Positions 2,685 through 58,264 of a DNA stretch of 64,000 nucleotides are shown one piece after another. Origin of the DNA: Bacteroidales bacterium (GTDB lineage: Bacteria > Bacteroidota > Bacteroidia > Bacteroidales > VadinHA17); assembly GCA_021738535.1 (NCBI GenBank), contig JAIPBU010000004.1:36573-100572 (forward strand), in the 5' to 3' direction. Within the stretch, counting starts at the first letter, position 1, and the number at the start of each line of letters is the position of its first letter. The translations under genes and the position numbers were made by a program. The notes beneath the pieces are model-generated. The model was not told the DNA's origin, did not search any database, and saw nothing but the letters and a program-made list of their open reading frames with translations.

Positions 2685-5135
2685 TTACCTGATCTGTGCT
2701 CCCAGTTCGTCACGGTAAGCTTTCTGAAGTTTGTTCATTACCTTATCTATAATCTTTTCAGTAAGAGTCTTCTTGTCATCTCTCAGGATGAAACTGACTG
2801 CATAAGACTTTTTATTTTTGCCGAGAGATTCACTTTCGTATACATCGAAAAGCCCAACCTGGCGCAGGAGGTTCTTTTCACTCCTGAAAGCCAGCTGCCT
2901 GATTTGCTCAAACCTGGTATCTTTATCAACCAGTAAAGCAAGATCCCTTCTTACGCTGGGGTATTTAGGCAGTTCACTGTAAGTGATTTTATGCTTTTTC
3001 AGGCTTTTCAGCACAGTGTCAAATTCTATGTGCCCATAGAAAACATCCTGTTTAATATCATTTTTTTCAAGGAACCCGGCGTTGATTTTTCCAAAGTGAG
3101 CAATCTGCTTATTGTTTACACTCAGTTCCAGGCTCTCATCATAGTATTTATAGTGCATTTCACTGGTGGTGAAGGAGTCTTTGTTAAATCCCAGTTTTTC
3201 GAGCACCATCTCAACTGCCCATTTAATGGAATAGAAATCACTTGTTTCGCCGGGGTTGTCCCAGCTTTCAGGTCTTCTTGAACCGCTTAAAAACAGGTCG
3301 AGTGAGAGTTTTTCCGTGTAATTATTAACAGGATCTGCTTCCTTTTTATCTGAATTGAGAAAGTAACAGGTGCCAAATTCATAAAATGCAAGATCGGGAT
3401 TTTGCCTGTTTATATTTCTTGATATTGCACTTAATCCTCCAAATAAAAGGGACTGCCTCATGCAGTCAAGATCATTGCTTAAAGGGTTGGCAAGCATTAC
3501 GGTTTTATCGTTTTCAAAATCATGATTCTCTTCATACCATGATGAAGGATTAAGCGAATTAGACATGATCTCACTGAAGCCTGCTCCTGAGAGCATATCG
3601 GATATGGTGTTTATTACCCTTTCTTTTTCCGGTTTATCAAAGAAGCTGAGTGTTGAATTAACATGCTGGGGAACTTCAATGTTGTTGTAGCCGTAGATCC
3701 TGAGCACTTCCTCGATAATATCTGCCTCCCTGGTGACATCCACCCGGTATGCGGGAACTTCACAGCTAAAGGAATCATTGTCGTATGCCGTTACATCAAT
3801 ATCCAGCGAATCAAGGATCTTCATTATCTCTTCCTTCTTAATGGACTTGCCCGTAAGGCGTGTAATATTATCATAAGAGACCTCAACAATTGCTTTTTTC
3901 ACCTTGCTGGGATATACATCCACTACACGGGAGCTGATAGTGCCACCGGCCAGTTCTTTTATAAGAAGGGCAGCTCTTTTCAATGCCCAGAGAGTTATTT
4001 CCGGATCAGAACCGCGTTCAAACCTGAAAGACGCATCAGTCTGCAGGTCGTGGCGGCGCGATGTTTTACGTATTGATACAGGATTAAAACATGCACTCTC
4101 CAGGAATATGTTCTTTGTTTTTCCGATTACCCCTGATCCCAGTCCGCCGAAGACTCCTGCTATACACATTCCTTTTTCAGCATCGCATATCATGAGATCT
4201 TTGTCAGATAATTCCCTTTCTTCCTCATCGAGTGTTACAAATTTTGTTTTATCAGGGAGGTTTTTTACAATAACCTTCCCGCCGGCTATTTTGTCTGCAT
4301 CAAAGGCATGCAGCGGTTGACCTGATTCGTGAAGTACATAATTTGTAATATCCACAACATTATTGAGTGGGGCAAGCCCAATTGCTTTTAACCTGTTCTT
4401 AAGCCATTGCGGAGACTCCTTTACTTCGACCCCCGATATTGTAAGTCCTGAATACCTTATGCAGTCTTGCTCATTTTCAATAATAACCGGTATGTGCAAC
4501 GAATCACTTTCTTCCTTAAACTCTTTAACCGAAGGCAGTTTTGCCCTGTTGAACCTGAACAGGTTGAAATATGCCGCAAGGTCCCTTGCAGCTCCGAAAT
4601 GAGACCCTCCGTCTATCCTGTTGGGAGTAAGCCCGATTTCAAATACCGTGTCGTACTCCACATCGAAGTACCTGTTGGCAGGGATGCCCAAAGGTGTGTC
4701 TTCCGGCAGCACGATTATCCCTTCGTGTGATTCGCCCAGGCCGAGCTCATCCTCCGCACATATCATACCCTCGGATACTTCACCTCTTATCTTCGTCTTC
4801 TTAATTAAAAATTCTGCACCCCTGAAATCCAGGACTGCACCCGGAGTGGCAACCACTACTTTCTGACCTGCCTCAACATTAGGAGCACCGCAAACAATTT
4901 TATGGAGTTCCTTATCGCCTGTATCTACCGTTGTGACAAACAGCCTGTCTGCGTTTGGATGCCTCTCGCATGTTTTTACTTCACCCGTCAGCACTCCCTT
5001 CATTCCTCCCTTTACAGATACCCAGTCATCCATTCCCTCTACCTCAAGTCCAATATTGGTCAGTATGGTGCTCAGTTCTTCTGGTTTCTTGTCTGTGTCA
5101 AGGTATTGTAATAACCAGTTGTATGAAATCTTCAT
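2685..5135 (-). CDS. pheT: phenylalanine--tRNA ligase beta subunit
   Basis: 816 aa. The N-terminal tRNA-binding OB domain (KTCERHPNADRL) and the overall length and domain order match bacterial PheRS beta. Confidence 0.95.
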   Translation of the reverse strand: MKISYNWLLQYLDTDKKPEELSTILTNIGLEVEGMDDWVSVKGGMKGVLTGEVKTCERHPNADRLFVTTVDTGDKELHKIVCGAPNVEAGQKVVVATPGAVLDFRGAEFLIKKTKIRGEVSEGMICAEDELGLGESHEGIIVLPEDTPLGIPANRYFDVEYDTVFEIGLTPNRIDGGSHFGAARDLAAYFNLFRFNRAKLPSVKEFKEESDSLHIPVIIENEQDCIRYSGLTISGVEVKESPQWLKNRLKAIGLAPLNNVVDITNYVLHESGQPLHAFDADKIAGGKVIVKNLPDKTKFVTLDEEERELSDKDLMICDAEKGMCIAGVFGGLGSGVIGKTKNIFLESACFNPVSIRKTSRRHDLQTDASFRFERGSDPEITLWALKRAALLIKELAGGTISSRVVDVYPSKVKKAIVEVSYDNITRLTGKSIKKEEIMKILDSLDIDVTAYDNDSFSCEVPAYRVDVTREADIIEEVLRIYGYNNIEVPQHVNSTLSFFDKPEKERVINTISDMLSGAGFSEIMSNSLNPSSWYEENHDFENDKTVMLANPLSNDLDCMRQSLLFGGLSAISRNINRQNPDLAFYEFGTCYFLNSDKKEADPVNNYTEKLSLDLFLSGSRRPESWDNPGETSDFYSIKWAVEMVLEKLGFNKDSFTTSEMHYKYYDESLELSVNNKQIAHFGKINAGFLEKNDIKQDVFYGHIEFDTVLKSLKKHKITYSELPKYPSVRRDLALLVDKDTRFEQIRQLAFRSEKNLLRQVGLFDVYESESLGKNKKSYAVSFILRDDKKTLTEKIIDKVMNKLQKAYRDELGAQIR

Positions 5136-8498: not shown

Positions 8499-10931
8499 AT
8501 GTTCGCAATATATAAAAGAGAAATAGGAAGCTTTTTTACCGGCCTGACCGGCTATATTGTAATACTGGTCTACCTTGTTATCAACAGCCTGCTTATGTGG
8601 ATACTGCCGGGCCAGTGGAATATTCTGGATACAGGCTATGCCAGTCTTGAACCTCTTTTTATTATTAGTCCATGGGTTTTTCTCTTCCTGGTACCGGCTG
8701 TTACAATGCGTATGGTGGCAGAAGAGAAGAGAAGCGGAACGCTTGAATTATTATTGTCGAGACCGGTATCTGAACGTCAAATAATATATGGTAAATACCT
8801 GGCTTCGCTGACGCTCGTGTTGCTTGCCCTGCTTCCCTGTGTTATATACTACGTTTCTGTCAGCTTACTGGGACAGTCTCCCGGGAATATTGACAGCGGC
8901 GGTACTATGGGAGCGGCCCTGGGCTTGTTCTTCCTCGCAGCTATCTATGCTGCTGCCGGGATTTTCTCCAGTACCTTGAGCTCAAACCAGGTGGCTTCTT
9001 TTATCATTTCTGTTATTACCGGTCTTATACTTTTTATCGGTTTTGATTCATTTGCCATGCTCCCTGGCCTGAAAAATATTGATGAACTGGTAATAAGACT
9101 GGGGATAAATGAACACTATAAATCAATTAGCCGGGGTGTGGTGGATTCAAGGGATATCCTGTACTACCTTGTTACTGTGCTTATATTCACTGAGCTTTCC
9201 GCCCTCTTGCTGCGCTCAGGCAAATGGAAGGGCTCCGGGTTAATTAAAACTGCCACTGCAAAAGGCAAAAAGAGTATTGCGGCTTTCTTTATAATGTTGC
9301 TTGCAGCAGTAGTGTTCTCGATTATTTCTTCACAATACTCATTCCGCTTTGACCTTACATCTGATAAAAGACATACTCTTTCTGATAAAACCAGGGAGGT
9401 ATTGTCAGGTCTCGATGATGAAGTTTATTTCCAGGTATACCTGGATGGGGAGATGCCGGTTGAATTTAAAAAATTACGACGCTCAGTTAAAGCGATGCTG
9501 GATGAGTTTCGTACCGGATCAGACCGAAAAGTGGATTACAGTTTTATTAACCCTGCTGAAGAAGAGGATGAGACCAAACGGAACAGGTACCAGTTATCAC
9601 TTATAAACAAAGGCCTTAAACCGGTAACTGTTTTTGATAATGATAATGAGGGTGGTAAGACTGAGAAGCGGATATTCCCCTCAATGATAATGAATTATAA
9701 TAATATCGAAATACCAGTAAACTTCCTGAAAAATAATCCCTCATTGCCAGCCGCAGTTAACCTGTCAAATTCAGTTGAAGGGCTTGAATATGAGCTTATT
9801 CAGCCAATATCAACCGCCCTTTCCGATACTATCCGTAAAGTAGCTTTTATAGAAGGCCATGGTGAGCTGGCAGAAGTGGAGGTAGCTGATATTACCCTTG
9901 AAATGGCCAGGTACTTTACAGTAGACCGGGGAACGATAAATGGCAGGGCAGGGGTACTGGATAATTATTCTGCCATTGTGGTGGCAGGCCCGCAAAAACG
10001 GTTCAGCGAAGAAGATAAACTGGTTATTGACCAGTACATAATGAATGGCGGGAAAGTATTATGGTTTATTGACGAGGTAATGGTAAGTAAAGACAGCCTG
10101 GCAGGAGGCGGGTCTGTGGCATTATACAGGCCTCTTAACCTGGAAGATCAGCTGTTTAAATACGGCGTAAGGATAGACCCCGTACTGGTGCAGGGAACAG
10201 ATTGTCTTATTATACCGGTACGGACAATGATAAGGGATTCAAGGCAGGTTATACCTGTGCCATGGATATATTATCCATTTCTGTATCCTAATTCAGATCA
10301 TCCCGTGACAAGGAATATTAACAGGGTCAAGTCTGAGTTTGTAAACCCTGTTGATACTGTAGGAGGAGATAACTCTGTAAAAAAGACAATACTGCTTGCC
10401 AGTCCTGCCGAAAGCAGAACGGTAAGCCCCCCCACGCTGATAAGCCTCGAGGATTATAAGAACCCGCCGCCGGCGGAGAGCTTTACAGGATCGTATATAC
10501 CGGTGGCAGCTCTCTTAGAGGGACGTTTTAATTCTCTGTATGCCAACAGGATGGTTTCATGGGAGGGAGGTGAGTTGAAAAAGAAAAGTAAGACAACAAA
10601 AATGATAGTGGTGGCTGATGGTGATATTATAAGGAATGAAGTTCGCCGGATCGGTAACAGGCTTGAACCTGAAAGACTTGGCCTGGACAAGTACTCGGGC
10701 CAGACTTTCGGGAATAAGGATTTTGTTATAAACTGCCTTAACTATCTTATTGATGACCGGGGATTGATTGATCTGCGTTCACGCGAATTAAAAGTCAGAT
10801 TGCTCGATAAAGAGAAAATCAGTGATAACAGGCTGCTGTGGCAATTAATCAATACCCTGGGACCTTTACTCCTGGTATTGCTGGCAGGAAGCATTTATGG
10901 ATTACTCAGAAAAAGAAAATATGCAGCGTAA
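8499..10931 (+). CDS. gldFG: fused gliding-motility ABC transporter components GldF (ABC-2 permease, ~aa 1-235) and GldG (auxiliary/periplasmic component, ~aa 255-810)
   Basis: The N-terminus MFAIYKREIGSFF...EEKRSGTLELLLSRP matches the GldF permease pattern. After a TM segment, RFDLTSDKRHTLSDKTREVLSGLDDEVYFQVYLDGEMP...MLDEFR matches the GldG N-terminus, and a C-terminal TM anchor is present. It is one uninterrupted 810-aa frame. Confidence 0.85.
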   Translation: MFAIYKREIGSFFTGLTGYIVILVYLVINSLLMWILPGQWNILDTGYASLEPLFIISPWVFLFLVPAVTMRMVAEEKRSGTLELLLSRPVSERQIIYGKYLASLTLVLLALLPCVIYYVSVSLLGQSPGNIDSGGTMGAALGLFFLAAIYAAAGIFSSTLSSNQVASFIISVITGLILFIGFDSFAMLPGLKNIDELVIRLGINEHYKSISRGVVDSRDILYYLVTVLIFTELSALLLRSGKWKGSGLIKTATAKGKKSIAAFFIMLLAAVVFSIISSQYSFRFDLTSDKRHTLSDKTREVLSGLDDEVYFQVYLDGEMPVEFKKLRRSVKAMLDEFRTGSDRKVDYSFINPAEEEDETKRNRYQLSLINKGLKPVTVFDNDNEGGKTEKRIFPSMIMNYNNIEIPVNFLKNNPSLPAAVNLSNSVEGLEYELIQPISTALSDTIRKVAFIEGHGELAEVEVADITLEMARYFTVDRGTINGRAGVLDNYSAIVVAGPQKRFSEEDKLVIDQYIMNGGKVLWFIDEVMVSKDSLAGGGSVALYRPLNLEDQLFKYGVRIDPVLVQGTDCLIIPVRTMIRDSRQVIPVPWIYYPFLYPNSDHPVTRNINRVKSEFVNPVDTVGGDNSVKKTILLASPAESRTVSPPTLISLEDYKNPPPAESFTGSYIPVAALLEGRFNSLYANRMVSWEGGELKKKSKTTKMIVVADGDIIRNEVRRIGNRLEPERLGLDKYSGQTFGNKDFVINCLNYLIDDRGLIDLRSRELKVRLLDKEKISDNRLLWQLINTLGPLLLVLLAGSIYGLLRKRKYAA

Positions 10932-23551: not shown

Positions 23552-23590
23552 TCCATTAATCCCTTAATCCAACAATCCATCAATCCATTT
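23552..23590. repeat. CCATTAAT-word low-complexity tract
   Basis: TTCCATTAATCCCTTAATCCAACAATCCATCAATCCATTT begins 10 nt after the GPP34 stop. The same words occur at 32458-32502 and 58210-58251. Confidence 0.8.
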
Positions 23591-26095: not shown

Positions 26096-26145
26096 GCTTC
26101 TGTATCAAATAGTGACTTTGTGCCTGAGTGGCTAAGTTGATGTAT

Positions 26146-26215
26146 AACAGGAAGAAACAAGATACAAGTACGGAAGATACAAGTGGGTTGTGCAGGGGGT
26201 TGATTATCTGCATAT
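26146..26215 (+). repeat. purine-rich ACAAG-word module of the intergenic repeat family (locus A)
   Basis: CAAGTACGGAAGATACAAGTGGGTTGTGCAGGGGGTTGATTATCTGCATATT aligns by hand with 35886-35937 at 46 of 52 positions. Confidence 0.85.
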
Positions 26216-26266
26216 TGGGAGATGCAAGGTGGTGCATCCACCGCATTGGCCAATCCCCGGGTGAGG

Positions 26267-26296
26267 GTGACGAAGTGACGAAGTGACGAAGCGACA
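26267..26296 (+). repeat. 8-mer tandem repeat GTGACGAA x3 (+GCGACA)
   Basis: Read directly: units at 26267, 26275 and 26283. Confidence 0.9.
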
Positions 26297-26311
26297 GGAC
26301 CGAGCGTTAAT

Positions 26312-26332
26312 AATTTGCCCGGTGGGCAAATT
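26312..26332. other. perfect 9-bp stem / 3-nt loop hairpin AATTTGCCC-GGT-GGGCAAATT
   Basis: Perfect inverted repeat read directly. No U-tract follows on either strand, so I do not call it a terminator. Confidence 0.7.
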
Positions 26333-26372
26333 TAGCGAGGGGCCAGGTAGCGGGGTGGCTTAGAGACGAAGA

Positions 26373-26409
26373 GACTAAGCGGCTAAGCGACTCAGCGACT
26401 AAGCGAAGC
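26373..26409 (+). repeat. 8-mer tandem repeat G(A/G)CT(A/C)AGC x4
   Basis: GACTAAGC GGCTAAGC GACTCAGC GACTAAGC GAAGC. The GGCTAAG word is complementary to the CTTAGCC word in the hexamer array at 26462-26509. Confidence 0.9.
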
Positions 26410-26420
26410 AACCTTTAGTC

Positions 26421-26462
26421 TTTTGTCTTTTGTCTTTTGCCTTTTGTCTTTTGTCTTTTGTC
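26421..26462 (+). repeat. 7-mer tandem repeat TTTTG(T/C)C x6
   Basis: Read directly: six consecutive units. Confidence 0.9.
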
Positions 26463-26509
26463 CTTAGCCTTAGCCTCAGCCTTCGCCTTAGCCTTAGCCT
26501 CAGCCTCAG
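26462..26509 (+). repeat. hexamer tandem array CCT(T/C)(A/C)G x8
   Basis: CCTTAG CCTTAG CCTCAG CCTTCG CCTTAG CCTTAG CCTCAG CCTCAG. The same array type occurs at 36095-36148. Confidence 0.9.
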
Positions 26510-26619
26510 CCTTTTCTCTTTCCTCCACCCCTGAACATATATACTTTTTGGACATAATGGCTATATTAGCCAAAATAATTAGCGGCCTTCATTGCCCTGA
26601 GGATATTTAAACCTGAATT

Positions 26620-32457: not shown

Positions 32458-32502
32458 TATTCCATTAATCCATCAATCCATTATTCATTGTTCCAAATAC
32501 TA
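32458..32502. repeat. CCATTAAT-word low-complexity tract
   Basis: TATTCCATTAATCCATCAATCCATTATTCATTGTTCC begins directly after the aspA stop. Confidence 0.8.
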
Positions 32503-33503: not shown

Positions 33504-35870
33504 ATGTTTGTCAGAAGAAGTTCTTTTCTACGAAACCTTAAAAGGTTTAATGGTATTGTATTGCTTAATATGGCCGGCCTGGCAATAGGGCTTGCCGGGG
33601 TCATTTTTATTGCCCTATGGGTAAACCATGAATTGAGTTACGATAGGTTCCATGAAAATTCAGACAGGATTTACAGGATGGAGTCTCTTCTTAACTGGAC
33701 TGGTGACCCCTTTGTCTGGCAGGTAACACCTGCTCCCCTTGCTCAGAATATTGTGAAGGATTATCCGGATGTTGAACTGGCAGTAAGGATGAAAAAGGGT
33801 TATTCTCCCCTGATAAAATCAGGAGAGGAAGTATTTAATGCAGAAAATTTCTATTTTGCTTCACCCGGATTATTTAAACTATTCTCTTTTAACCTTATCT
33901 ACGGGAATCCCGGGAGTGTCCTGGCAGAACCTTACTCAATATTGTTGTCTGAAAAAAAAGCACTTAAATTATTCGGAACAACAAACATCCTTGGTAAGGA
34001 GATAATATATGATAATGAGCATCTTATGACGGTGTCAGGGGTGTTTGAAGATATTCCTTCAAACAGTCATATTAAACTGGATTACATTGTTCCCTTTTCT
34101 TTTTTAGTTGAGGATAACAGGAAACTGGACAGTTGGACAAGATATAATTTTTATACCTATATATTGCTGAAAGAAGGTGTTGATGCCGGGGAATTTAATA
34201 AGAAAATCAAGACATACCTTTCAAGAAAAGCTGAAAAGGATGCCGGTGAACTTTTGCTTAACCCGCTACGGAGAATACACCTCTACAGGGATCCGGGTTT
34301 TGAATCACAAATATATCCTTCCGCCGGTAAAGGCCCTATTTCTACAGTTATCCTGTTTTCCATAATAGGTGTCGCCTTGCTGCTGATTGCATGCATCAAT
34401 TTTATAAATCTTTCAACTGCTGTTTCTGCAACAAGGGCAAAAGAAATTGGAGTGCGTAAAGTTGCCGGGGCAAGCCGTGAAAACCTTGTTTATAAATTAT
34501 TCGGAGAGTCTTTTACCCAGGCAATTATTTCCATGACAGTTGCATTGGTAATTGTCTTGCTGCTCTTTCCTGTATTTAATAATATAACAGGACTGGATAT
34601 GAGTGCAGGGGATATGATAAAACCTGTAAATATTCTTGCTGTTATTGCAATTACAACAATTACTGCCATACTATCCGGGATATATCCTGCCATTGTTCTG
34701 TCTTCTTTCAAACCGGTAAAAGTGCTTAAATCTAAACTGGATGGAAGGGCAAAAAATGGGGTGGGTCTGAGAAAAATACTCGTTCTATTCCAGTTTACAC
34801 TATCTGTGTTATTTATCTTCTGTGTGATCCTGATGAACAGGCAGACCAGTTTTATGCGTAACTATGATCCTGGCTTTGATAAAGAAAATACCATGGTCGT
34901 TTATCCCGGATCCGATTCTGATGATGCAGAGATTATTGCTGGTGAAATAAAAAAAATGCCGGGTGTGGCAAATGTAGCCATAGGTAATAATGTACCTGTT
35001 AATATGGGTGGCTGGCAGGTTCTTAGAGATTGGGATGGTAATGACGAAAATAAGGAACTGAAATTTCATTTGATCCAGGTTGACGATAATTACATTGACC
35101 TGCTTGGATTCAAAATGGCACAGGGGAGACAGTTTAATAAGGGACAGCAGAATAATGAAGTCATAATAAATGAGTCTGCTGTAAAGATGATGGGAATGAA
35201 TTCTCCCCTTGGTAAAAACATATACCTGGATGGACTTGAATATGAGATCATAGGTGTGTTAAAAGATTTTCATTTCAGAAAGCTGAAGGAAGAGGTGAAG
35301 CCTGTTTTTATCTATAAGCCTGATCGTTGGTGGGGAAGAAAGATCTTTGTTAAGTTGGCTCCGGGGAGTGGTCATGATATAGTTGACCGAATAGCAGGTG
35401 TGGTGGATGAGTTTAATCCTGATTACCCGGCAAACTTTATCTTTCTTGACGAGGAAATGGATAACTATTACCAGGACGAGAGCCGTCTCAATAAACTATT
35501 GAATATTGCCACCCTGATAAGTATTATCATCTCATCAATAGGGCTGTTCAGCCTGACCGCTTTCGCTACACGCAGCAAACAAAGAGAGATAGGTATCAGG
35601 AAAGTTCACGGGGCTTCACCCCCCGGTATAATATTTATGCTTCAAAAGCAATTCGGGTACCTTATAGTTATTTCATCCCTTATTGCATTTCCCCTTGCAT
35701 ATTATGTTATAAGCCGATGGCTCCAGACCTATGCTTACCATATAACTGTTAAGGTACAGTATTTTATCCTTACATTTATTCTTGTAAGCATGGTAGCTGC
35801 TCTGACTATCCTGTTTCATTCACTCCGCTCAGCTAACCTTAACCCGGCAGATACACTGAGGGAGGAGTGA
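33504..35870 (+). CDS. MacB/FtsX-family ABC transporter permease, paralog 2
   Basis: 788 aa with the same architecture as 23741-26095 (KEIGVRKVAGA and REIGIRKVHGA FtsX motifs). No adjacent ATPase gene. Confidence 0.85.
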   Translation: MFVRRSSFLRNLKRFNGIVLLNMAGLAIGLAGVIFIALWVNHELSYDRFHENSDRIYRMESLLNWTGDPFVWQVTPAPLAQNIVKDYPDVELAVRMKKGYSPLIKSGEEVFNAENFYFASPGLFKLFSFNLIYGNPGSVLAEPYSILLSEKKALKLFGTTNILGKEIIYDNEHLMTVSGVFEDIPSNSHIKLDYIVPFSFLVEDNRKLDSWTRYNFYTYILLKEGVDAGEFNKKIKTYLSRKAEKDAGELLLNPLRRIHLYRDPGFESQIYPSAGKGPISTVILFSIIGVALLLIACINFINLSTAVSATRAKEIGVRKVAGASRENLVYKLFGESFTQAIISMTVALVIVLLLFPVFNNITGLDMSAGDMIKPVNILAVIAITTITAILSGIYPAIVLSSFKPVKVLKSKLDGRAKNGVGLRKILVLFQFTLSVLFIFCVILMNRQTSFMRNYDPGFDKENTMVVYPGSDSDDAEIIAGEIKKMPGVANVAIGNNVPVNMGGWQVLRDWDGNDENKELKFHLIQVDDNYIDLLGFKMAQGRQFNKGQQNNEVIINESAVKMMGMNSPLGKNIYLDGLEYEIIGVLKDFHFRKLKEEVKPVFIYKPDRWWGRKIFVKLAPGSGHDIVDRIAGVVDEFNPDYPANFIFLDEEMDNYYQDESRLNKLLNIATLISIIISSIGLFSLTAFATRSKQREIGIRKVHGASPPGIIFMLQKQFGYLIVISSLIAFPLAYYVISRWLQTYAYHITVKVQYFILTFILVSMVAALTILFHSLRSANLNPADTLREE

Positions 35871-35937
35871 AGAAGATACAAGAAACAAGTACGGAAGAAA
35901 CAAGTGAGTTGTGCAGGGATGTAATTATCTGCATATT
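35871..35937 (+). repeat. purine-rich ACAAG-word module (locus B)
   Basis: Starts at the first nt after the stop codon. It is homologous to 26146-26215. Confidence 0.85.
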
Positions 35938-35944
35938 CAGACTT

Positions 35945-36040
35945 CCGCCGCACTGGCCTGATCCCCGGGTGGTACCCCCGCCCACTGGCCTGATCCCCGG
36001 GTGGTACCCCCGCCCACTGGCCTAATCCCCGGGTGGTACC
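35945..36040 (+). repeat. 32-nt tandem repeat x3
   Basis: The CACTGGCC word recurs at 35951, 35983 and 36015 (period 32). The unit is ~CACTGGCCTGATCCCCGGGTGGTACCCCCGCC. Single diverged units occur at 26239-26270 and 46768-46797. Confidence 0.9.
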
Positions 36041-36082
36041 GGGGCTATTTCTATTCACCCCCGGGGGTGTTAAGGTAATCCC
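36024..36082 (+). repeat. conserved core of the intergenic repeat family
   Basis: The 39 nt AATCCCCGGGTGGTACCGGGGCTATTTCTATTCACCCCC (36024-36062) are identical to 46782-46820. GGGGTGTTAAGGTAATCCC (36064-36082) is identical to 46873-46891. The core contains the hairpins CCCCGG/CCGGGG and CACCCCC/GGGGGTG. Confidence 0.9.
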
Positions 36083-36094
36083 TTCTATAACGAA

Positions 36095-36148
36095 CCTTCG
36101 CCTTAGCCTTAGCCTCAGCCTTCGCCTCAGCCTTCGCCTTAGCCTTCT
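36095..36148 (+). repeat. hexamer tandem array CCT(T/C)(A/C)G x9
   Basis: CCTTCG CCTTAG CCTTAG CCTCAG CCTTCG CCTCAG CCTTCG CCTTAG CCTTCT. Confidence 0.9.
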
Positions 36149-36224
36149 CCTTTGCGCCGCCTTTGGATAGTTTTTTCATTTTCAATAATCTGGCTCTCAC
36201 TGCTCACTGCTCATATCTTTTAAT

Positions 36225-36232
36225 TACCTTTG
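36225..36232 (+). promoter_or_regulatory. candidate -7 promoter box TACCTTTG
   Basis: Exact TAnnTTTG match inside the ORF-track N-terminus, 18 nt upstream of the in-frame GTG at 36250. Confidence 0.4.
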
Positions 36233-36249
36233 CAGATTATTCTGATGCC

Positions 36250-37590
36250 GTGAAGATAACTGAGAATTTATCATACCGTAAAATATTCCTTTTCTGGGGA
36301 CCGCTGGCTCTTACGTGGCTTATGATGGCCTTTGAGCAGCCTTTCCTGGTATCTGTTATTGCAAGGCTTCCGGATGCAAAATATAATCTTGCTGCCTTCG
36401 GGATAGCATTCTCTTTTGCACTGATAGTTGAAGCACCTGTTATTATGCTTATGAGCGCCTCAACAGCACTGGTAACTGACAGGAATTCCTACAGGAAGAT
36501 GAAGAGATTTACAGATATTCTCAATATATCGGTAGTTGTTGTTCAGGTCCTCGTTCTTATTCCTCCTGTTTTCAATTTTATCATCAATGATCTGATGGGT
36601 GTCCCTGATAACGTTGCAAAGCTTACTTATATTTCGCTGGTATTATTGATATTATGGCCTCCTGCCATAGGATACCGGAGGTTTTACCAGGGGATACTGA
36701 TCCGCAATAACCTGACACGGAGGGTTACCTATGGAACGGTAATCAGGCTGACCGTAATTGCTATTGCAGGATTCATACTCTACCTCGCTGGTCTTGAAGG
36801 TGCTTATGTTGGCGGTGCAACACTCTCCCTGGCTGTCACGGCAGAAGCAGTGGCCAGCTGGCTGATGGCCAGGAAAACGGTAAGGGCCATTGTGAGAGGT
36901 GGAGATCAACCGGAGCGGGATGAGAACGGGGAGCCAAATACTAAGCTGGGTTATAAATTTATTACACGGTTCTATACTCCCCTGGCACTAACATCATTAT
37001 TGTCGCTCGGCGTTCATCCCTTTGTGACATTTTTCCTGGGAAGGAGCCAGATGCCTGTTGAATCTCTTGCGGTATTGCCCGTGGTAAATTCACTGGTATT
37101 CATATTCAGAAGTATGGGCTTGTCGTACCAGGAAGTCCTTATTGCACTGGTTGGTGAGCGTAAGCAGAATTATAACTATTTACGCAATTTCGCAACAATC
37201 CTTGGCGCAGCAGTTACAGTACTGTTGGGTATAATTGCTTTTACTCCCCTGGCTGAAATATGGTTCGTTAAAGTATCAGGTCTCCAGGCTGACCTGGCAG
37301 ATCTTGCATACCTGCCCCTGCGCATTCTGATCGTTATGCCGGCATTGTCAGTGCTGCTTTCTTTCCAGCGCTCAACACTGGTGATCGCAGGTAATACAAA
37401 ACCTATATCGCTTGCTACAGGCATTGAACTTGTAACCATAATTACTGCATTGCTGATATGCATTGCTTATTTTAATATGGTTGGAGTTATTGCGGCTGCT
37501 ATTTCTTACATCATCGGTAAAGGAGCATCAAATCTTTATCTCAGTACAAAACAGCTCAGTACAGTAAGAATGTGGAAAAAGAAATACTGA
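36250..37590 (+). CDS. polytopic membrane protein, MATE/MOP-superfamily-like transporter (putative)
   Basis: About 12 or more predicted TM helices across ~446 aa, with MOP-like spacing. The family is not firmly recognised. The track start (TTG 36163) runs through the promoter box, so I prefer GTG 36250. The start remains uncertain. Confidence 0.4.
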   Translation: MKITENLSYRKIFLFWGPLALTWLMMAFEQPFLVSVIARLPDAKYNLAAFGIAFSFALIVEAPVIMLMSASTALVTDRNSYRKMKRFTDILNISVVVVQVLVLIPPVFNFIINDLMGVPDNVAKLTYISLVLLILWPPAIGYRRFYQGILIRNNLTRRVTYGTVIRLTVIAIAGFILYLAGLEGAYVGGATLSLAVTAEAVASWLMARKTVRAIVRGGDQPERDENGEPNTKLGYKFITRFYTPLALTSLLSLGVHPFVTFFLGRSQMPVESLAVLPVVNSLVFIFRSMGLSYQEVLIALVGERKQNYNYLRNFATILGAAVTVLLGIIAFTPLAEIWFVKVSGLQADLADLAYLPLRILIVMPALSVLLSFQRSTLVIAGNTKPISLATGIELVTIITALLICIAYFNMVGVIAAAISYIIGKGASNLYLSTKQLSTVRMWKKKY

Positions 37591-39464: not shown

Positions 39465-39608
39465 GCTACCATTCTGAACAGCTTGCCCTGGGCAACAGTC
39501 AATCATCCCAATACAGCATTGGATTATTCGCTCTCCCTCCTGCGCTGAAAGCTTAGGAGGGCAGAGCTCATGATCCCATAAGGGAGAAGCTTCAGAGCAA
39601 AATAAAAG

Positions 39609-39636
39609 CAATGCCTGACGGCATTGATTTTGTTTT
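39609..39636 (+). terminator. rho-independent terminator
   Basis: CAATGCC-tgac-GGCATTG (7-bp stem) followed by ATTTTGTTTT, 145 nt downstream of the cytochrome c stop. Confidence 0.6.
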
Positions 39637-39680
39637 CAGGCATTTACTCGCTCGAGCAAGCTCGGCTCGTAAAGCCATAA

Positions 39681-39719
39681 AACAAAAAACCATTCGCTTG
39701 TGCGAATGGCTTTTATTTT
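39681..39719. terminator. bidirectional rho-independent terminator
   Basis: CCATTCGC-ttgt-GCGAATGG is flanked by an A-run (AACAAAAAA) on one side and a T-run (CTTTTATTTT) on the other. On the minus strand it lies just after the 3' end of tRNA-Ser. Confidence 0.7.
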
Positions 39720-39723
39720 GCTC

Positions 39724-39811
39724 TGGCGGAGAAAGAGGGATTCGAACCCCCGGTACCTTACGGTACAACGGTTTTCAAGACCGCCGCATTCGACCACTCT
39801 GCCATTTCTCC
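39724..39811 (-). tRNA. tRNA-Ser (anticodon UGA), class II with long variable arm, CCA encoded
   Basis: The reverse complement reads GGAGAAATGGCAGAGTGGTCGAATGCGGCGGTCTTGAAAACCGTTGTACCGTAAGGTACCGGGGGTTCGAATCCCTCTTTCTCCGCCA. It has a 7-bp acceptor stem, anticodon loop CTTGAAA, variable-arm stem GTACC/GGTAC and a TTCGAAT T-loop. Confidence 0.95.
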
Positions 39812-41821: not shown

Positions 41822-43009
41822 ATGATCTCCAGTCGAAATTTATTCCTCTCACATGTCGGGCAAACTTCCACTGAACCTTTGCTGATTGAAATAGAAAAAG
41901 CAAAAGGTATCTGGTTGTACTCACCTGATGGTAAAAAATACCTTGACCTGGTCTCCGGTGTGTCTGTCAGTAATGCAGGTCACTGCAATGAGCATATAAT
42001 AACTGCCGTTAACAATCAAATGGATAAATATGCCCACCTGATGGTATATGGCGAACTGGTGCAGTCGCCGCAGGTAAATTATGCCAGAAGGCTCACAGAG
42101 CTGATGCATGATCACTTTGAAACAGTATATTTTGTGAACAGTGGATCAGAAGCGGTTGAAGGTGCAATCAAAACAGCAAGAAGATATACAGGCAGATCAA
42201 GGATAGTTTCATTCAGAAATGCTTACCATGGTTCAACAATGGGGGCTATGAGCCTCTTCGGTGATCAAGATTTCAGATCACAGTTTATGCCACTTATACC
42301 CGGCATAGTGCAGGCTGAATTCAATAATGAAAAATCACTGTCCGTAATTGATGATAGTGTTGCTGCAGTCATTGTTGAACCAATACAGGCAGAAGCAGGG
42401 ATAATAAATCCTGAAAATGATTTTCTTAAAACATTAAGAGAAAAGTGTAATAAAAGCGGGACCCTTTTGATCTTTGATGAGATACAGACCGGGTTCGGCA
42501 GGACAGGAACCCTTTTTGCCTACGAAAGATATGATGTGGTTCCTGATATTATCTGCCTTGCAAAATCACTGGGAGGAGGACTTCCCCTGGGCGCATTTGT
42601 CTCCTCCAATAAGATCATTTCAACGCTTTCTTCCAATCCTGCACTTGGTCATATAACCACATTTGGCGGTCACCCTGTGTCATGTGCGGCTGGCCTGGCA
42701 GGCCTTGAGTATATAACAGAAAATGAGCTGCATCTTAAATCTGTGGATAAAGGAAAGAGGTTCAGGAAAAAACTAAAGCATAAAGAGATAGCAGGGATAA
42801 GGGGAGAAGGATTGTTCATGGCAGTTAAACTGTCCTCGGCAGAGCTCGCTTCCAGGTTTATTGAACAGGGAACAAAGAATGGCCTGATACTTGATCAGTT
42901 CCTTTTTTGTAACGACTCGTTCAGGATATCACCACCCCTGGTAATAAAAAATGAAGAGATAGATTATGCAGTTGATGTCATTAAACAAACTATTGATGAA
43001 GTACGGTAA
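41822..43009 (+). CDS. class III aminotransferase (acetylornithine aminotransferase-like)
   Basis: The SGSEAVEGAIK and LIFDEIQTGFGRTG motifs and a PLP-lysine region (LAKSLGGG), at 395 aa. Confidence 0.8.
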   Translation: MISSRNLFLSHVGQTSTEPLLIEIEKAKGIWLYSPDGKKYLDLVSGVSVSNAGHCNEHIITAVNNQMDKYAHLMVYGELVQSPQVNYARRLTELMHDHFETVYFVNSGSEAVEGAIKTARRYTGRSRIVSFRNAYHGSTMGAMSLFGDQDFRSQFMPLIPGIVQAEFNNEKSLSVIDDSVAAVIVEPIQAEAGIINPENDFLKTLREKCNKSGTLLIFDEIQTGFGRTGTLFAYERYDVVPDIICLAKSLGGGLPLGAFVSSNKIISTLSSNPALGHITTFGGHPVSCAAGLAGLEYITENELHLKSVDKGKRFRKKLKHKEIAGIRGEGLFMAVKLSSAELASRFIEQGTKNGLILDQFLFCNDSFRISPPLVIKNEEIDYAVDVIKQTIDEVR

Positions 43010-43820
43010 AACTCTTGCTGTTTTATTATTATTGATTTCTTCACTTACCTCCCGCTCCCAATCATTCGACCAGGTAAGGGACTATCTTAATCGTATTTCG
43101 CTTTCCGGGGTGGACGAAGCTAAAATATCACTTAATGATTCAATCACGTATGTGCTTACAAAATACCTGGAAAATGATACAGTGAATAATCCCTGGGATT
43201 ATCCTGATATCCCTTATCTTGGAGAACTTACATCCCAAGACAGCATGGTAAAGGTCTTTTCATGGAATATCCCACTTCAGAATGGCACTAATATTTATAA
43301 TTGTATTATCTATGACCGTGTACGTGATAAGGTTATTCCCCTTAAAAATGATGAGGGATTACTTGACCTGGAAAAGGATGAAGTGATTGGTGCCGGCGAT
43401 TGGTATGGTACTCTTTACTACGAAATTATTAAGATCAATGAAGGCGACAGCCTCAGCTATGTACTGCTTGGTTATTGCCCGGCAAATAAGTTAAATTCCA
43501 AAGTAATTGAAGTTCTTGGTTTTGACCAGGACGGCAATGTGTTCTTTGGAAAGGATGTATTTGCTGATAGTCCTGACGATAAGAAAAGGATGATCTTTAA
43601 ATATAGTCCTCTCGCTACAATGATGCTTAAATACCAGGAAGAAAGCCACCGTATTGTTTATGATCATCTTTCTCCTCCTTCTCCTGAATTTACGGGGCAA
43701 TTAAGATATTATGGTCCTGACTTTTCATATGATGCCCTGGAAATAAGGTCCGGCAGGCTTTTCCCGGTGGAAGATATTGACTTCAGGGCAAAACAAGATA
43801 CCACTGTTATTGATAATTGA
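42996..43820 (+). CDS. hypothetical secreted protein
   Basis: Signal peptide MKYGKTLAVLLLLISSLTSRSQ from ATG 42996, which overlaps the upstream stop by 14 nt. No recognisable family. Confidence 0.5.
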   Translation: MKYGKTLAVLLLLISSLTSRSQSFDQVRDYLNRISLSGVDEAKISLNDSITYVLTKYLENDTVNNPWDYPDIPYLGELTSQDSMVKVFSWNIPLQNGTNIYNCIIYDRVRDKVIPLKNDEGLLDLEKDEVIGAGDWYGTLYYEIIKINEGDSLSYVLLGYCPANKLNSKVIEVLGFDQDGNVFFGKDVFADSPDDKKRMIFKYSPLATMMLKYQEESHRIVYDHLSPPSPEFTGQLRYYGPDFSYDALEIRSGRLFPVEDIDFRAKQDTTVIDN

Positions 43821-46059: not shown

Positions 46060-46074
46060 ACAATATTCTATAAA

Positions 46075-46108
46075 GTTGAGAATGAGTGCCAATAAACTCA
46101 TTCTCAAC
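46075..46108. terminator. perfect 13-bp stem-loop between convergent genes (probable bidirectional terminator)
   Basis: GTTGAGAATGAGT-gccaataa-ACTCATTCTCAAC, verified base by base, 16 nt after the htpG stop. Confidence 0.7.
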
Positions 46109-46156
46109 TCATTCAAACTCATTCAAACTCATTCAAACTCATTCAAACTCATTCTG
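46096..46156 (+). repeat. 10-mer tandem repeat ACTCATTCAA (4 perfect units plus diverged flanking units)
   Basis: Perfect units start at 46107, 46117, 46127 and 46137. Diverged units lie at 46096 and 46147. The first unit doubles as the right arm of the hairpin. Confidence 0.9.
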
Positions 46157-46157
46157 A

Positions 46158-46754: not shown

Positions 46755-46915
46755 TAGCCTTTGCCTTCCACCGCGTGGTCCAATCCCCGGGTGGTACCGG
46801 GGCTATTTCTATTCACCCCCTTCCGACTTCGCCCTGCGGGCTTCGTCGGACAAAGCCGGGGGTGTCAAGGTAGGGGTGTTAAGGTAATCCCATATATAAT
46901 GAACCTTAGCCCTTT
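46755..46915 (+). repeat. third copy (locus C) of the intergenic repeat family
   Basis: It contains one 32-nt-type unit, the identical 39-nt core (46782-46820) and the identical 19-mer (46873-46891). A 51-nt net insertion sits between CACCCCC and GGGGGTG. Only a vestigial hexamer is present (CCTTAGCC). Confidence 0.9.
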
Positions 46916-46982
46916 CCTGAAACATGCCCTGCAACATTGAGATTCTTCGCTTCGCACAGAATGACAATAGGCAAAAATTAAT

Positions 46983-50037: not shown

Positions 50038-50153
50038 ACAGTTTGAAAGAGTGAGAGAGTTTGAACAGGCATTCGCTTACTTCGACACTTCAGCTTCGCT
50101 CAGCACAGGCAAGCTCAACACAAGTCGCTCAGGATGACAGAGCAGGATGAAAG

Positions 50154-58124: not shown

Positions 58125-58130
58125 GAAATG

Positions 58131-58256
58131 TTAATGGACTGGATTGTTGGAATAATGGATTGTTGAATTGTTGGAATGTTGGTTAACAAGCAGTAAGCTG
58201 CAAATATTTCCATTATTCCATTAATCCATTAATCCATTAATCCATTAATCCAGTTT
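58131..58256. repeat. long imperfect inverted repeat built from CCATTAAT / ATTAATGG words; probable bidirectional terminator
   Basis: The right arm has five tandem 8-mers: CCATTATT once, then CCATTAAT four times (58210-58251). The left arm CTGGATTGTTGGAATAATGGATT (58138-58160) matches the reverse complement of the right arm at about 19 of 23 positions by hand. It lies between the convergent yceI-like gene and ppdK. Confidence 0.7.
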
Positions 58257-58264
58257 AAACCTAC

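Follow-up and report, generated by a model that had tools for sequence, protein, structure and literature searches.

What fills a spacer that is so much richer in GC than the DNA around it? The spacer in question runs from 35871 to 36249 in a 64,000-nucleotide stretch of the Bacteroidales contig JAIPBU010000004.1 (the window, by which we mean the whole of that stretch), and separates the stop codon of a MacB_PCD/FtsX permease gene (33504..35870) from a MatE gene, the start of which we place at a GTG at 36250. At its highest (35950-36049) the GC content is 0.71, compared with 0.35-0.45 on either side; the remaining spacers of the window are mostly 19-31% GC. An original prediction, made from the letters of the window, saw here a dispersed, modular, GC-rich intergenic repeat family. 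The family is real, and further copies of it exist in metagenome and metagenome-assembled genome (MAG) contigs. Its modules are present in many copies, are recombined in order, vary in copy number, and are gained, lost or replaced at orthologous spacers. Judged by sequence, it is no known family by threshold and appears to combine hairpins like those of Acido-Lenti-1, clustering like that of repetitive extragenic palindromes (REPs) and bacterial interspersed mosaic elements (BIMEs), and long simple-sequence repeats. The reading we favor, at a probability of about one half, is that the spacer is a REP/BIME-like mosaic with an Acido-Lenti-1-type double-hairpin core, one that undergoes turnover as DNA and, when its plus strand is transcribed, would serve as a terminator or 3'-end protector.

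All five modules claimed for the 300-base spacer lie where they had been placed, around a core of two hairpins that we call HP1 and HP2:

35872 to 35937, plus strand: purine module, AAGATAC-type 7-nt words and then a hairpin (about 35905-35937); 88% identical to 26151-26216.
35945 to 36040, plus strand: three head-to-tail 32-nt units, each with the HP1 5' arm, a loop and CCCCGCCCACTGGCCTG; period 32, 3.0 copies and 96% matches by Tandem Repeats Finder (TRF).
36027 to 36044, plus strand: HP1, CCCCGG-GTGGTA-CCGGGG; its stem has 6 bp, all of them GC, and its loop 6 nt.
36045 to 36055, plus strand: U-rich linker CTATTTCTATT between HP1 and HP2, conserved among units.
36056 to 36069, plus strand: HP2, CACCCCC/GGGGGTG; a 100% palindrome, loopless in this copy.
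36064 to 36109, plus strand: 3' flank module GGGGTGTTAAGGTAATCCC...GAACCTT; 85% identical to 46873-46918, the first 19 nt identical.
36095 to 36152, plus strand: CCT(T/C)(A/C)G hexamer array, 8.7-9.7 copies by TRF.
36196 to 36231, plus strand: CTCACTG x2.6 array (TRF), directly upstream of a TAnnTTTG box; neighboring sequence, outside the repeat family proper.

Read on the plus strand, the core passes from HP1 through CUA and a U-rich linker (about 12 nt) to a variable HP2. The 39-nt core sequence at 36024-36062 is identical to 46782-46820 (two exact matches against none expected from 100 shuffles), and all 39 positions are the same again in an orthologous locus of 87% identity, while the flanks diverge. 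The 19-mer at 36064 recurs unchanged at 46873, and the likeness runs on to 46 nt at 85%. The hairpin of the purine module folds with a z-score of -3.06, and a segment within the 32-nt unit pairs weakly with the HP1 5' arm in various registers.

The 26-kb locus had been counted as a related copy, which is right for its purine module and hexamer array (26462-26513, the same CCTTAG type), but it has no complete core. The two other copies in the window are laid out as follows:

26151 to 26263, plus strand: 26-kb copy, first part; purine module and one 32-nt-type unit ending in a truncated HP1 5' arm (CCAATCCCCGGGTG).
26267 to 26513, plus strand: 26-kb copy, second part; GTGACGAA x3.6, the hairpin AATTTGCCC/GGGCAAATT, GACTAAGC x5.2, CTTTTGT x7.1 and CCTTAG x8.7.
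46758 to 46918, plus strand: 46.8-kb copy; a unit remnant, HP1 (46785-46802), linker (46803-46813), HP2, a 14-mer duplication and the 3' flank module.

At 46.8 kb the arms of HP2 (46814-46820 and 46858-46864) are split by a 37-nt nested hairpin (46821-46857), and a 14-mer is duplicated (46859-46886). The predicted fold retains the closing stem of HP2 together with the nested hairpin.

Where else does the element occur? A metagenome scan with the exact 21-mer of HP1 returned eight contigs, L107 to L114. Of these, L107 comes from a relative and is orthologous to the window's locus, with 87% identity over 2.98 kb; L108 to L114 match the window through the element only. L115 was found by searching 5.8 billion proteins with the translated (five-frame) element, which hit a sole predicted open reading frame (ORF; P0001). 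This contig has no genes in common with the window, and it carries a complete copy (9963-10366) with its modules in the window's order. A scan of genome collections used a 16-mer, ATCCCCGGGTGGTACC, that was over-short and gave 105 mostly chance hits, the only relevant one being L090, a MAG from the Bacteroidales in which the same HP1 stands between heptamer arrays. A covariance model made from 16 units and run on the window and the element-bearing contigs (122 kb) finds 23 core units, all in the window or in metagenome and MAG contigs of Bacteroidales with 39-56% GC; in about 63 kb of three syntenic relatives it finds none. The closest named protein homologues of the window's genes come from Bacteroidales or Bacteroidota MAGs, and the only public contig of the window's species (Logan, 9.5 kb) has repeats at both ends. 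Viral contigs gave no match to the element, and no paper found by our literature search contains the hairpin sequence.

Every copy lies within a spacer, with array edges abutting gene ends. Within those spacers the purine module, the 32-nt units and the 6-10-nt arrays assort independently of each other. The purine module is found in L107, L112, L113 and L115, the 3' flank module in L108 and L113, and the hexamer-type array in L107, L108, L112 and L113. The words of the short arrays (CCTTAG, CTTTTGT, GACTAAGC, GTGACGAA, TCCATTAA and AAACTCATTC) recur across loci and organisms, being common to the window, L107, L108, L112, L113, L115 and L117. Pieces of the 26-kb copy turn up elsewhere, the GACTAAGC array in L115 (20419-20473), the CTTTTGT array also in L115 (10329-10360) and the AATTTGCCC/GGGCAAATT hairpin in L119 (8701-8731), and the 37-nt insert of the 46.8-kb copy is also in L112. 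The number of 32-nt units goes from 1 (26 kb) through 2 (L107) and 3 (36 kb) to 5.3 (L115).

The single module order and orientation that had been noticed at all copies is true of the window but breaks down outside it. L112 has the core, then the 37-nt insert, the purine module, a AAACTCATTC array (the motif of window 46094-46154) and a CCTTAG array. In L115 (8445-8610) a stop codon is directly followed by a partial core, and the purine module close to it points the other way. The purine module of L113 is broken up by another hairpin, and there the element comes after a canonical terminator. L109 and L111 each carry three tandem core units, spaced 66-76 nt apart, whose HP2 stems differ, and L109 packs nine core units into 3.2 kb, in clusters of both orientations. 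Truncated or interrupted cores occur at 26 kb, 46.8 kb, L112 and L115 (8567-8610).

Two further stretches are related to these modules. L115 16324-16408 has a 38-nt unit repeated 2.2 times (GCAGGGAGCCCGCCTCCGGCAAGCCTACGGCGGACAAA), ending in ...CGGACAAAGC, in common with the 37-nt nested hairpin (window 46821-46857; L112 565-600); it is probably one more hairpin module. After htpG in the window (46060-46157), a hairpin, GAGAATGAGT/ACTCATTCTC, is followed by AAACTCATTC x6, the same 10-mer array that sits inside the L112 mosaic.

Does the core hold together as a pair of hairpins while all this shuffling goes on? It does: the hairpin-forming ability of the core is kept by compensatory changes. HP1 is unchanged in sequence in most of the 21 units that bear it, its loop differing in three, an invariance that is partly a retrieval effect because most extra copies were fetched with the exact HP1 21-mer. 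In two units of L109 the stem is CCACAG/CTGTGG, a compensated variant; two pairs of HP1 are changed on both sides (2/20 units) and the rest is invariant. HP2 is another matter. It has at least eight different 6-7-bp core stems (CACCCCC, CACCCAC, GACCGCC, ATGCGCC, GATCCCC, AACCCC, GACCCC and CAGCCCC), with 16 distinct stems in the full listing, and CG, GC, AT and TA pairs are found at the same stem positions. Its loop is missing at 36 kb, is a 4-nt GTCC in the orthologue L107, and 3-5 nt in general, a variation that puts the 3' arm out of register in MAFFT and cmalign alignments. The automatic pair count was too low for this reason and we replaced it with a loop-anchored one. By that count, 93.9% of HP2 stem positions are paired (14 distinct units), whereas shuffling the 3' arms among units gives 69.4 +/- 3.5%, and none of 5000 shuffles reaches the observed value; the covariation that the original prediction had proposed looking for is there. 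The RNA also folds more stably from the plus strand than from the minus strand in 17 of 20 distinct units (mean difference -1.6 kcal/mol, Wilcoxon p = 0.002), owing to G-U pairs. This bias is only suggestive, since the units are not independent.

The clearest view of turnover comes from relatives. Through homologues of MatE we reached the syntenic loci L116, L117, L119, L120 and L122, at 68-78% nucleotide identity, and compared two spacers:

Upstream of MatE, L116: 102 nt, 26% GC, no permease gene, element absent.
Upstream of MatE, L117: a decayed permease pseudogene and none of the window's modules.
Upstream of MatE, L122: permease intact; a 216-nt GC-rich spacer made up of modules other than the window's, namely GCCGGGA x3, a CCCTGAC/GTCAGGG hairpin and ACCAGTA repeats.
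DUF7935 to AspC-type aminotransferase (the 46.8-kb site), L116: empty.
DUF7935 to AspC-type aminotransferase, L117: a GC-rich but unrelated insertion that carries TGGAATAA repeats.

In the closer relative, L107, the element is kept; it has one 32-nt unit fewer, an HP2 whose loop is 4 nt long and fewer hexamers, and synteny stops exactly at the element's left edge. Gene content shifts at the same spacers that carry the repeats: the second MacB/FtsX permease gene (33504-35870) is intact in the window and L122, survives as a decayed pseudogene in L117, and is missing in L116, L119 and L120. We considered whether the element might be a leftover of permease gene duplication and rejected the idea: the two upstream permeases of the window are only 31% identical as proteins, against 88% for the purine modules, so the shared module is not a duplication remnant. 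Nor is there an obligatory tie to FtsX-type genes, as L107 has the element without such a gene and L112, L113 and L115 have other neighbors.

Two kinds of short array lie next to TAnnTTTG boxes. We take the TAnnTTTG box TACCTTTG (36224-36231) to be the putative MatE promoter (its -7 box), from what is known of Bacteroidetes promoters. The CTCACTG array in front of it is nearly invariant in L107, and L122 has ACCAGTA repeats there (3905-3945); the position is kept and the word differs. Arrays of the 8-mer TCCATTA(A/T) lie at 23552-23589 and 32461-32481 in the window and at 2790-2826 in L117. One of them precedes the SBF transporter gene, immediately ahead of a TAnnTTTG box, and L117 retains it at the orthologous place (genes about 71% identical) despite a different upstream neighbor.

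Has any of this been described before? The original prediction did not recognize a known family, and the Rfam search it had proposed bears that out as far as thresholds go: no family reached its gathering score in the window, and there was no hit at E<=10 in 35800-36300. As a general statement it was too strong, because the architecture of the core is that of Acido-Lenti-1 (RF01687) and the organization is REP/BIME-like. The published Acido-Lenti-1 alignment shows an 8-bp hairpin, CUA with a 12-nt U-rich linker and a 5-bp hairpin, in many copies per genome, in Acidobacteria and Lentisphaerae and sometimes near group II introns (Weinberg et al. 2010, PMC2864571). The gathering threshold of RF01687 is 37 bits, and no copy reaches it; the best relative, the L114 core, scores 23.6 bits with the Rfam model. 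With a model rebuilt from 39 of the published alignment sequences, L114 scores 27.7 bits, L111 20.5, L109 19.2, L090 18.8, L110 15.1 and the window 14.3. Units align over the full rebuilt model (positions 1-46) on the plus strand only, the minus strand scoring -0.3 bits, and it is from this full-length alignment that we conclude that the architecture is the same. To our knowledge, no function has been proposed for Acido-Lenti-1 since 2010.

The motif and our core each consist of two GC-rich hairpins that face the same way, with a U-rich stretch of about 12 nt, beginning CUA, between them; the linker of K. versatilis, GGGCUAUUUCAUUCC, is close to the window's GGGCUAUUUCUAUUC. In both, the two stems vary by compensatory change and there are many copies per genome, among them tandem arrays with a period of 74-115 nt there and 66-76 nt here. 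The differences are just as plain. HP1 has 6 bp and a 6-nt loop here but 8 bp and a 4-nt loop in the motif, and HP2 has 6-7 bp and a 3-5-nt loop against 5 bp and 3 nt. Our units score 14-28 bits, below the gathering score of 37. The hosts here are Bacteroidales rather than Acidobacteria or Lentisphaerae, and the core is set in a mosaic with half-hairpin units and simple-repeat arrays.

That mosaic brings to mind the REPs and BIMEs of enterobacteria and Pseudomonas and the GTAG-tagged palindromes of Di Nocera et al. (2013, PMC3733652). Like them, our modules are short extragenic palindromes of high copy number, clustered and in mosaics with other conserved motifs, reiterated in tandem together with flanking DNA, lineage-specific, and mostly between genes of the same direction or convergent genes. 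On the strand opposite HP1 the stem is preceded by (G/A/T)TAG, recalling GTAG-tagged REPs: GTAG-CCCCGG in L090 and L114, ATAG or TTAG in the window, L107 to L113 and L115. A difference is that the second hairpin here has a different, variable sequence.

The short arrays have precedents too. Cyanobacteria have long simple-sequence repeat arrays known as short tandemly repeated repetitive (STRR) sequences, and arrays of 5-11-nt tandem units that are intergenic and recurrent across loci are just what we find. The 6-10-nt arrays belong to this known class of long simple-sequence repeats, with tandem 6-10-nt words from a small vocabulary at many intergenic sites of several organisms, often abutting start or stop codons or promoters. 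The words themselves differ, and here they are linked to GC-rich hairpin modules. Dispersed repeats of the heptamer TAACTGA have been reported from Beggiatoaceae, Cyanobacteria and Bacteroidetes (MacGregor 2015, PMC4679880).

The GC clusters of yeast mitochondrial DNA are GC-rich palindromic modules in AT-rich spacers, with nested insertions, strain differences and an unsettled mechanism; the likeness is an analogy only, their host being an organelle genome and the sequences unrelated. A CRISPR array we could rule out, as the 32-nt units are contiguous and the 66-76-nt units hold related rather than unique intervening sequence.

How might a REP/BIME-like mosaic with an Acido-Lenti-1-type core come about? 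The modules would spread and turn over as DNA. Dispersal may be the work of an agent that recognizes the hairpins in trans, or of recombination or gene conversion between copies, and local expansion would follow from replication slippage or unequal exchange. In transcripts of the plus strand, HP1 with its U-rich tail, and HP2, may affect the host as a terminator or a barrier to 3'-exonucleases, as in REPs and BIMEs; the core probably acts as a terminator or 3'-end hairpin when transcribed.

We put no more than even odds on this reading, given what weighs against it. In the window's family the tag reads ATAG or TTAG, with GTAG confined to L090 and L114. The units run head-to-tail rather than as the inverted pairs of REPINs, and it is only at the ends of L109, between separate clusters, that orientations are opposed. 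No dispersal agent, transposase or other, was seen in the window proteins or the other contigs that were scanned: the absence of a transposase that had been noted at the outset holds for the 20 window proteins scanned, and neither these nor the genes called in L115 to L122 include a transposase of the REP-associated tyrosine transposase (RAYT)/Y1 type. Genome copy number is extrapolated from 64 kb, and the conservation of HP1 is partly made by the search. In the 36-kb copy, where the HP2 loop is lost, the two-hairpin fold is not the minimum-energy structure. Whole-spacer folds (35871-36246 on both strands, and 26096-26619) have z-scores of about 0, no better than shuffles; a single large structure for the whole spacer is thereby ruled out and structure must be local. 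Finally, the plus-strand bias and Weinberg's RNA call for Acido-Lenti-1 suit a dedicated RNA function equally well.

Could the core, then, be a dedicated structured RNA, a Bacteroidales branch of an Acido-Lenti-1 small RNA (sRNA) or cis-regulatory RNA, under selection for what it does as RNA and with the arrays incidental? We think it unlikely. The two-hairpin architecture and related linker are those of Acido-Lenti-1, the stems show compensatory substitutions, G-U pairs stabilize the plus strand in 17 of 20 units, and the 39 core positions stay identical at the window loci and in the orthologue while the flanks diverge. Acido-Lenti-1 is, moreover, reportedly annotated in genomes of Tannerella forsythia, itself a member of the Bacteroidales (2026 preprint). 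Yet all copies score under the Acido-Lenti-1 threshold, they crowd many to a short contig in tandem and (in L109) in both orientations, and the core is missing from syntenic relatives. Copies are truncated or interrupted, as listed above; no promoter was identified attached to the units, and the L114 copy is antisense to both of its neighbors.

A plainer proposal is that these are ordinary intrinsic terminators next to locally generated simple repeats, alike by convergence, and that there is neither a dispersed family nor any mobility. Followed by its tail CTATTTCTAT, HP1 does pass a terminator scan and is the only terminator-like site in the scanned spacer, albeit with a weak U tract. The core is downstream of a gene and co-oriented with it at 26 kb, 36 kb, L110, L113 and L115b, whereas it lies between divergent genes at 46.8 kb, L112 and L115a and is antisense to both neighbors in L114; in L111 and L090 it faces the 3' end of the sole visible neighbor, the other side being off the contig. 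L110 and L113 are convergent-gene contexts in which the core is co-oriented with one neighbor. Only tandem-gene contexts are informative on orientation, and these give three independent co-oriented loci (the 26-kb remnant, 36 kb with its orthologue L107, and L115b) and one antisense. The original prediction held that a simple terminator role does not explain the differing contexts, and the copies that lie between divergent genes or antisense to their neighbors bear this out. The L113 element, moreover, follows a canonical terminator already present, and L109 and L111 have triple tandem units. Convergence is insufficient because 39-nt identical cores and flanking modules of 46-66 nt are common to unrelated loci and organisms. 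This makes the proposal improbable.

There is a small chance that the composite of about 300 nt moves as one unit, in the manner of a miniature inverted-repeat transposable element (MITE), a non-autonomous transposon. Three full copies share one module order (36 kb, L107 and L115 9963-10366), the left boundary is sharp and begins GAAGATACAAG at several loci, and orthologous sites are empty in relatives. But L107 is the orthologue of the window copy rather than an independent insertion, and modules occur singly and in other orders. The element ends have no terminal inverted repeats, as had been noted from the start, and comparison with the empty site resolved no target-site duplication.

We give almost no credence to the last idea, that the hexamer arrays encode small lysine/alanine-rich minus-strand proteins (such as 36180->36055, MKKLSKGGAKEKAKAKAEAK...DYLNTPGGE*): each of the three window loci has an open frame that starts with ATG, which the original prediction did not mention, the motif ...DYLNTP...GGE* is common to two of these frames, and the 46.8-kb insert (37 nt plus the duplicated 14-mer) leaves its frame open, but period-6 arrays are open in some frame by construction, the search of 5.8 billion proteins gave one predicted ORF over such an element and in another frame, and we judged the frames spurious because, by our reading, an indel cuts that of the orthologue L107 to 15 codons and every one of the three differences that separate the two window copies in this frame changes the amino acid (R to H, R to I and R to W).

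Taking the element as a REP/BIME-like mosaic raises a wider, and doubtful, thought. Some Bacteroidales may share a vocabulary of small intergenic modules around an Acido-Lenti-1-type double hairpin, with active transfer of the modules from spacer to spacer, and perhaps across lineages of 39-56% GC, in which case Acido-Lenti-1 might be the visible tip of a widespread and mobile class of double-hairpin DNA. At the least, a Bacteroidales element that behaves as REP and BIME DNA does (it is mosaic, varies in copy number, comes and goes at orthologous spacers and has a synteny break at its edge) is a testable alternative to the sRNA label of Acido-Lenti-1. It also marks how quickly spacers turn over in these Bacteroidales. 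There are practical consequences for assembly and annotation, as the species' public contig ends in repeats and gene callers yield spurious ORFs over them. If the hairpins terminate or stabilize transcripts, such quick replacement would supply regulatory variation among close gut or environmental Bacteroidales.

Some neighbors in the window deserve mention. Between convergent genes at 58125-58264 are two opposed 8-nt arrays (of the TGGATTGT/TGGAATAA type, then TCCATTAA x5.5), which form a long tandem-repeat hairpin because they are mutually complementary. Another spacer between convergent genes, 50038-50153, is GC-rich (48%) and made of TTCGC/CTCAGC-type words (TTCGCTTACTTCGACACTTCAGCTTCGCTCAGC...); it may be a further module family, and a similar-looking stretch lies at L117 2735-2790. 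A 284-amino-acid ORF at 42966-43820 (plus strand) has no Pfam match, and the gene at the same position in L116 and L117 likewise has no Pfam hit. Within 39465-39811 there is a tRNA-Ser(TGA) on the minus strand (39724-39811) and, beside it, a 20-nt inverted repeat of 95% complementarity (39593-39612/39706-39725) that encloses 93 nt with further GC-rich palindromes.

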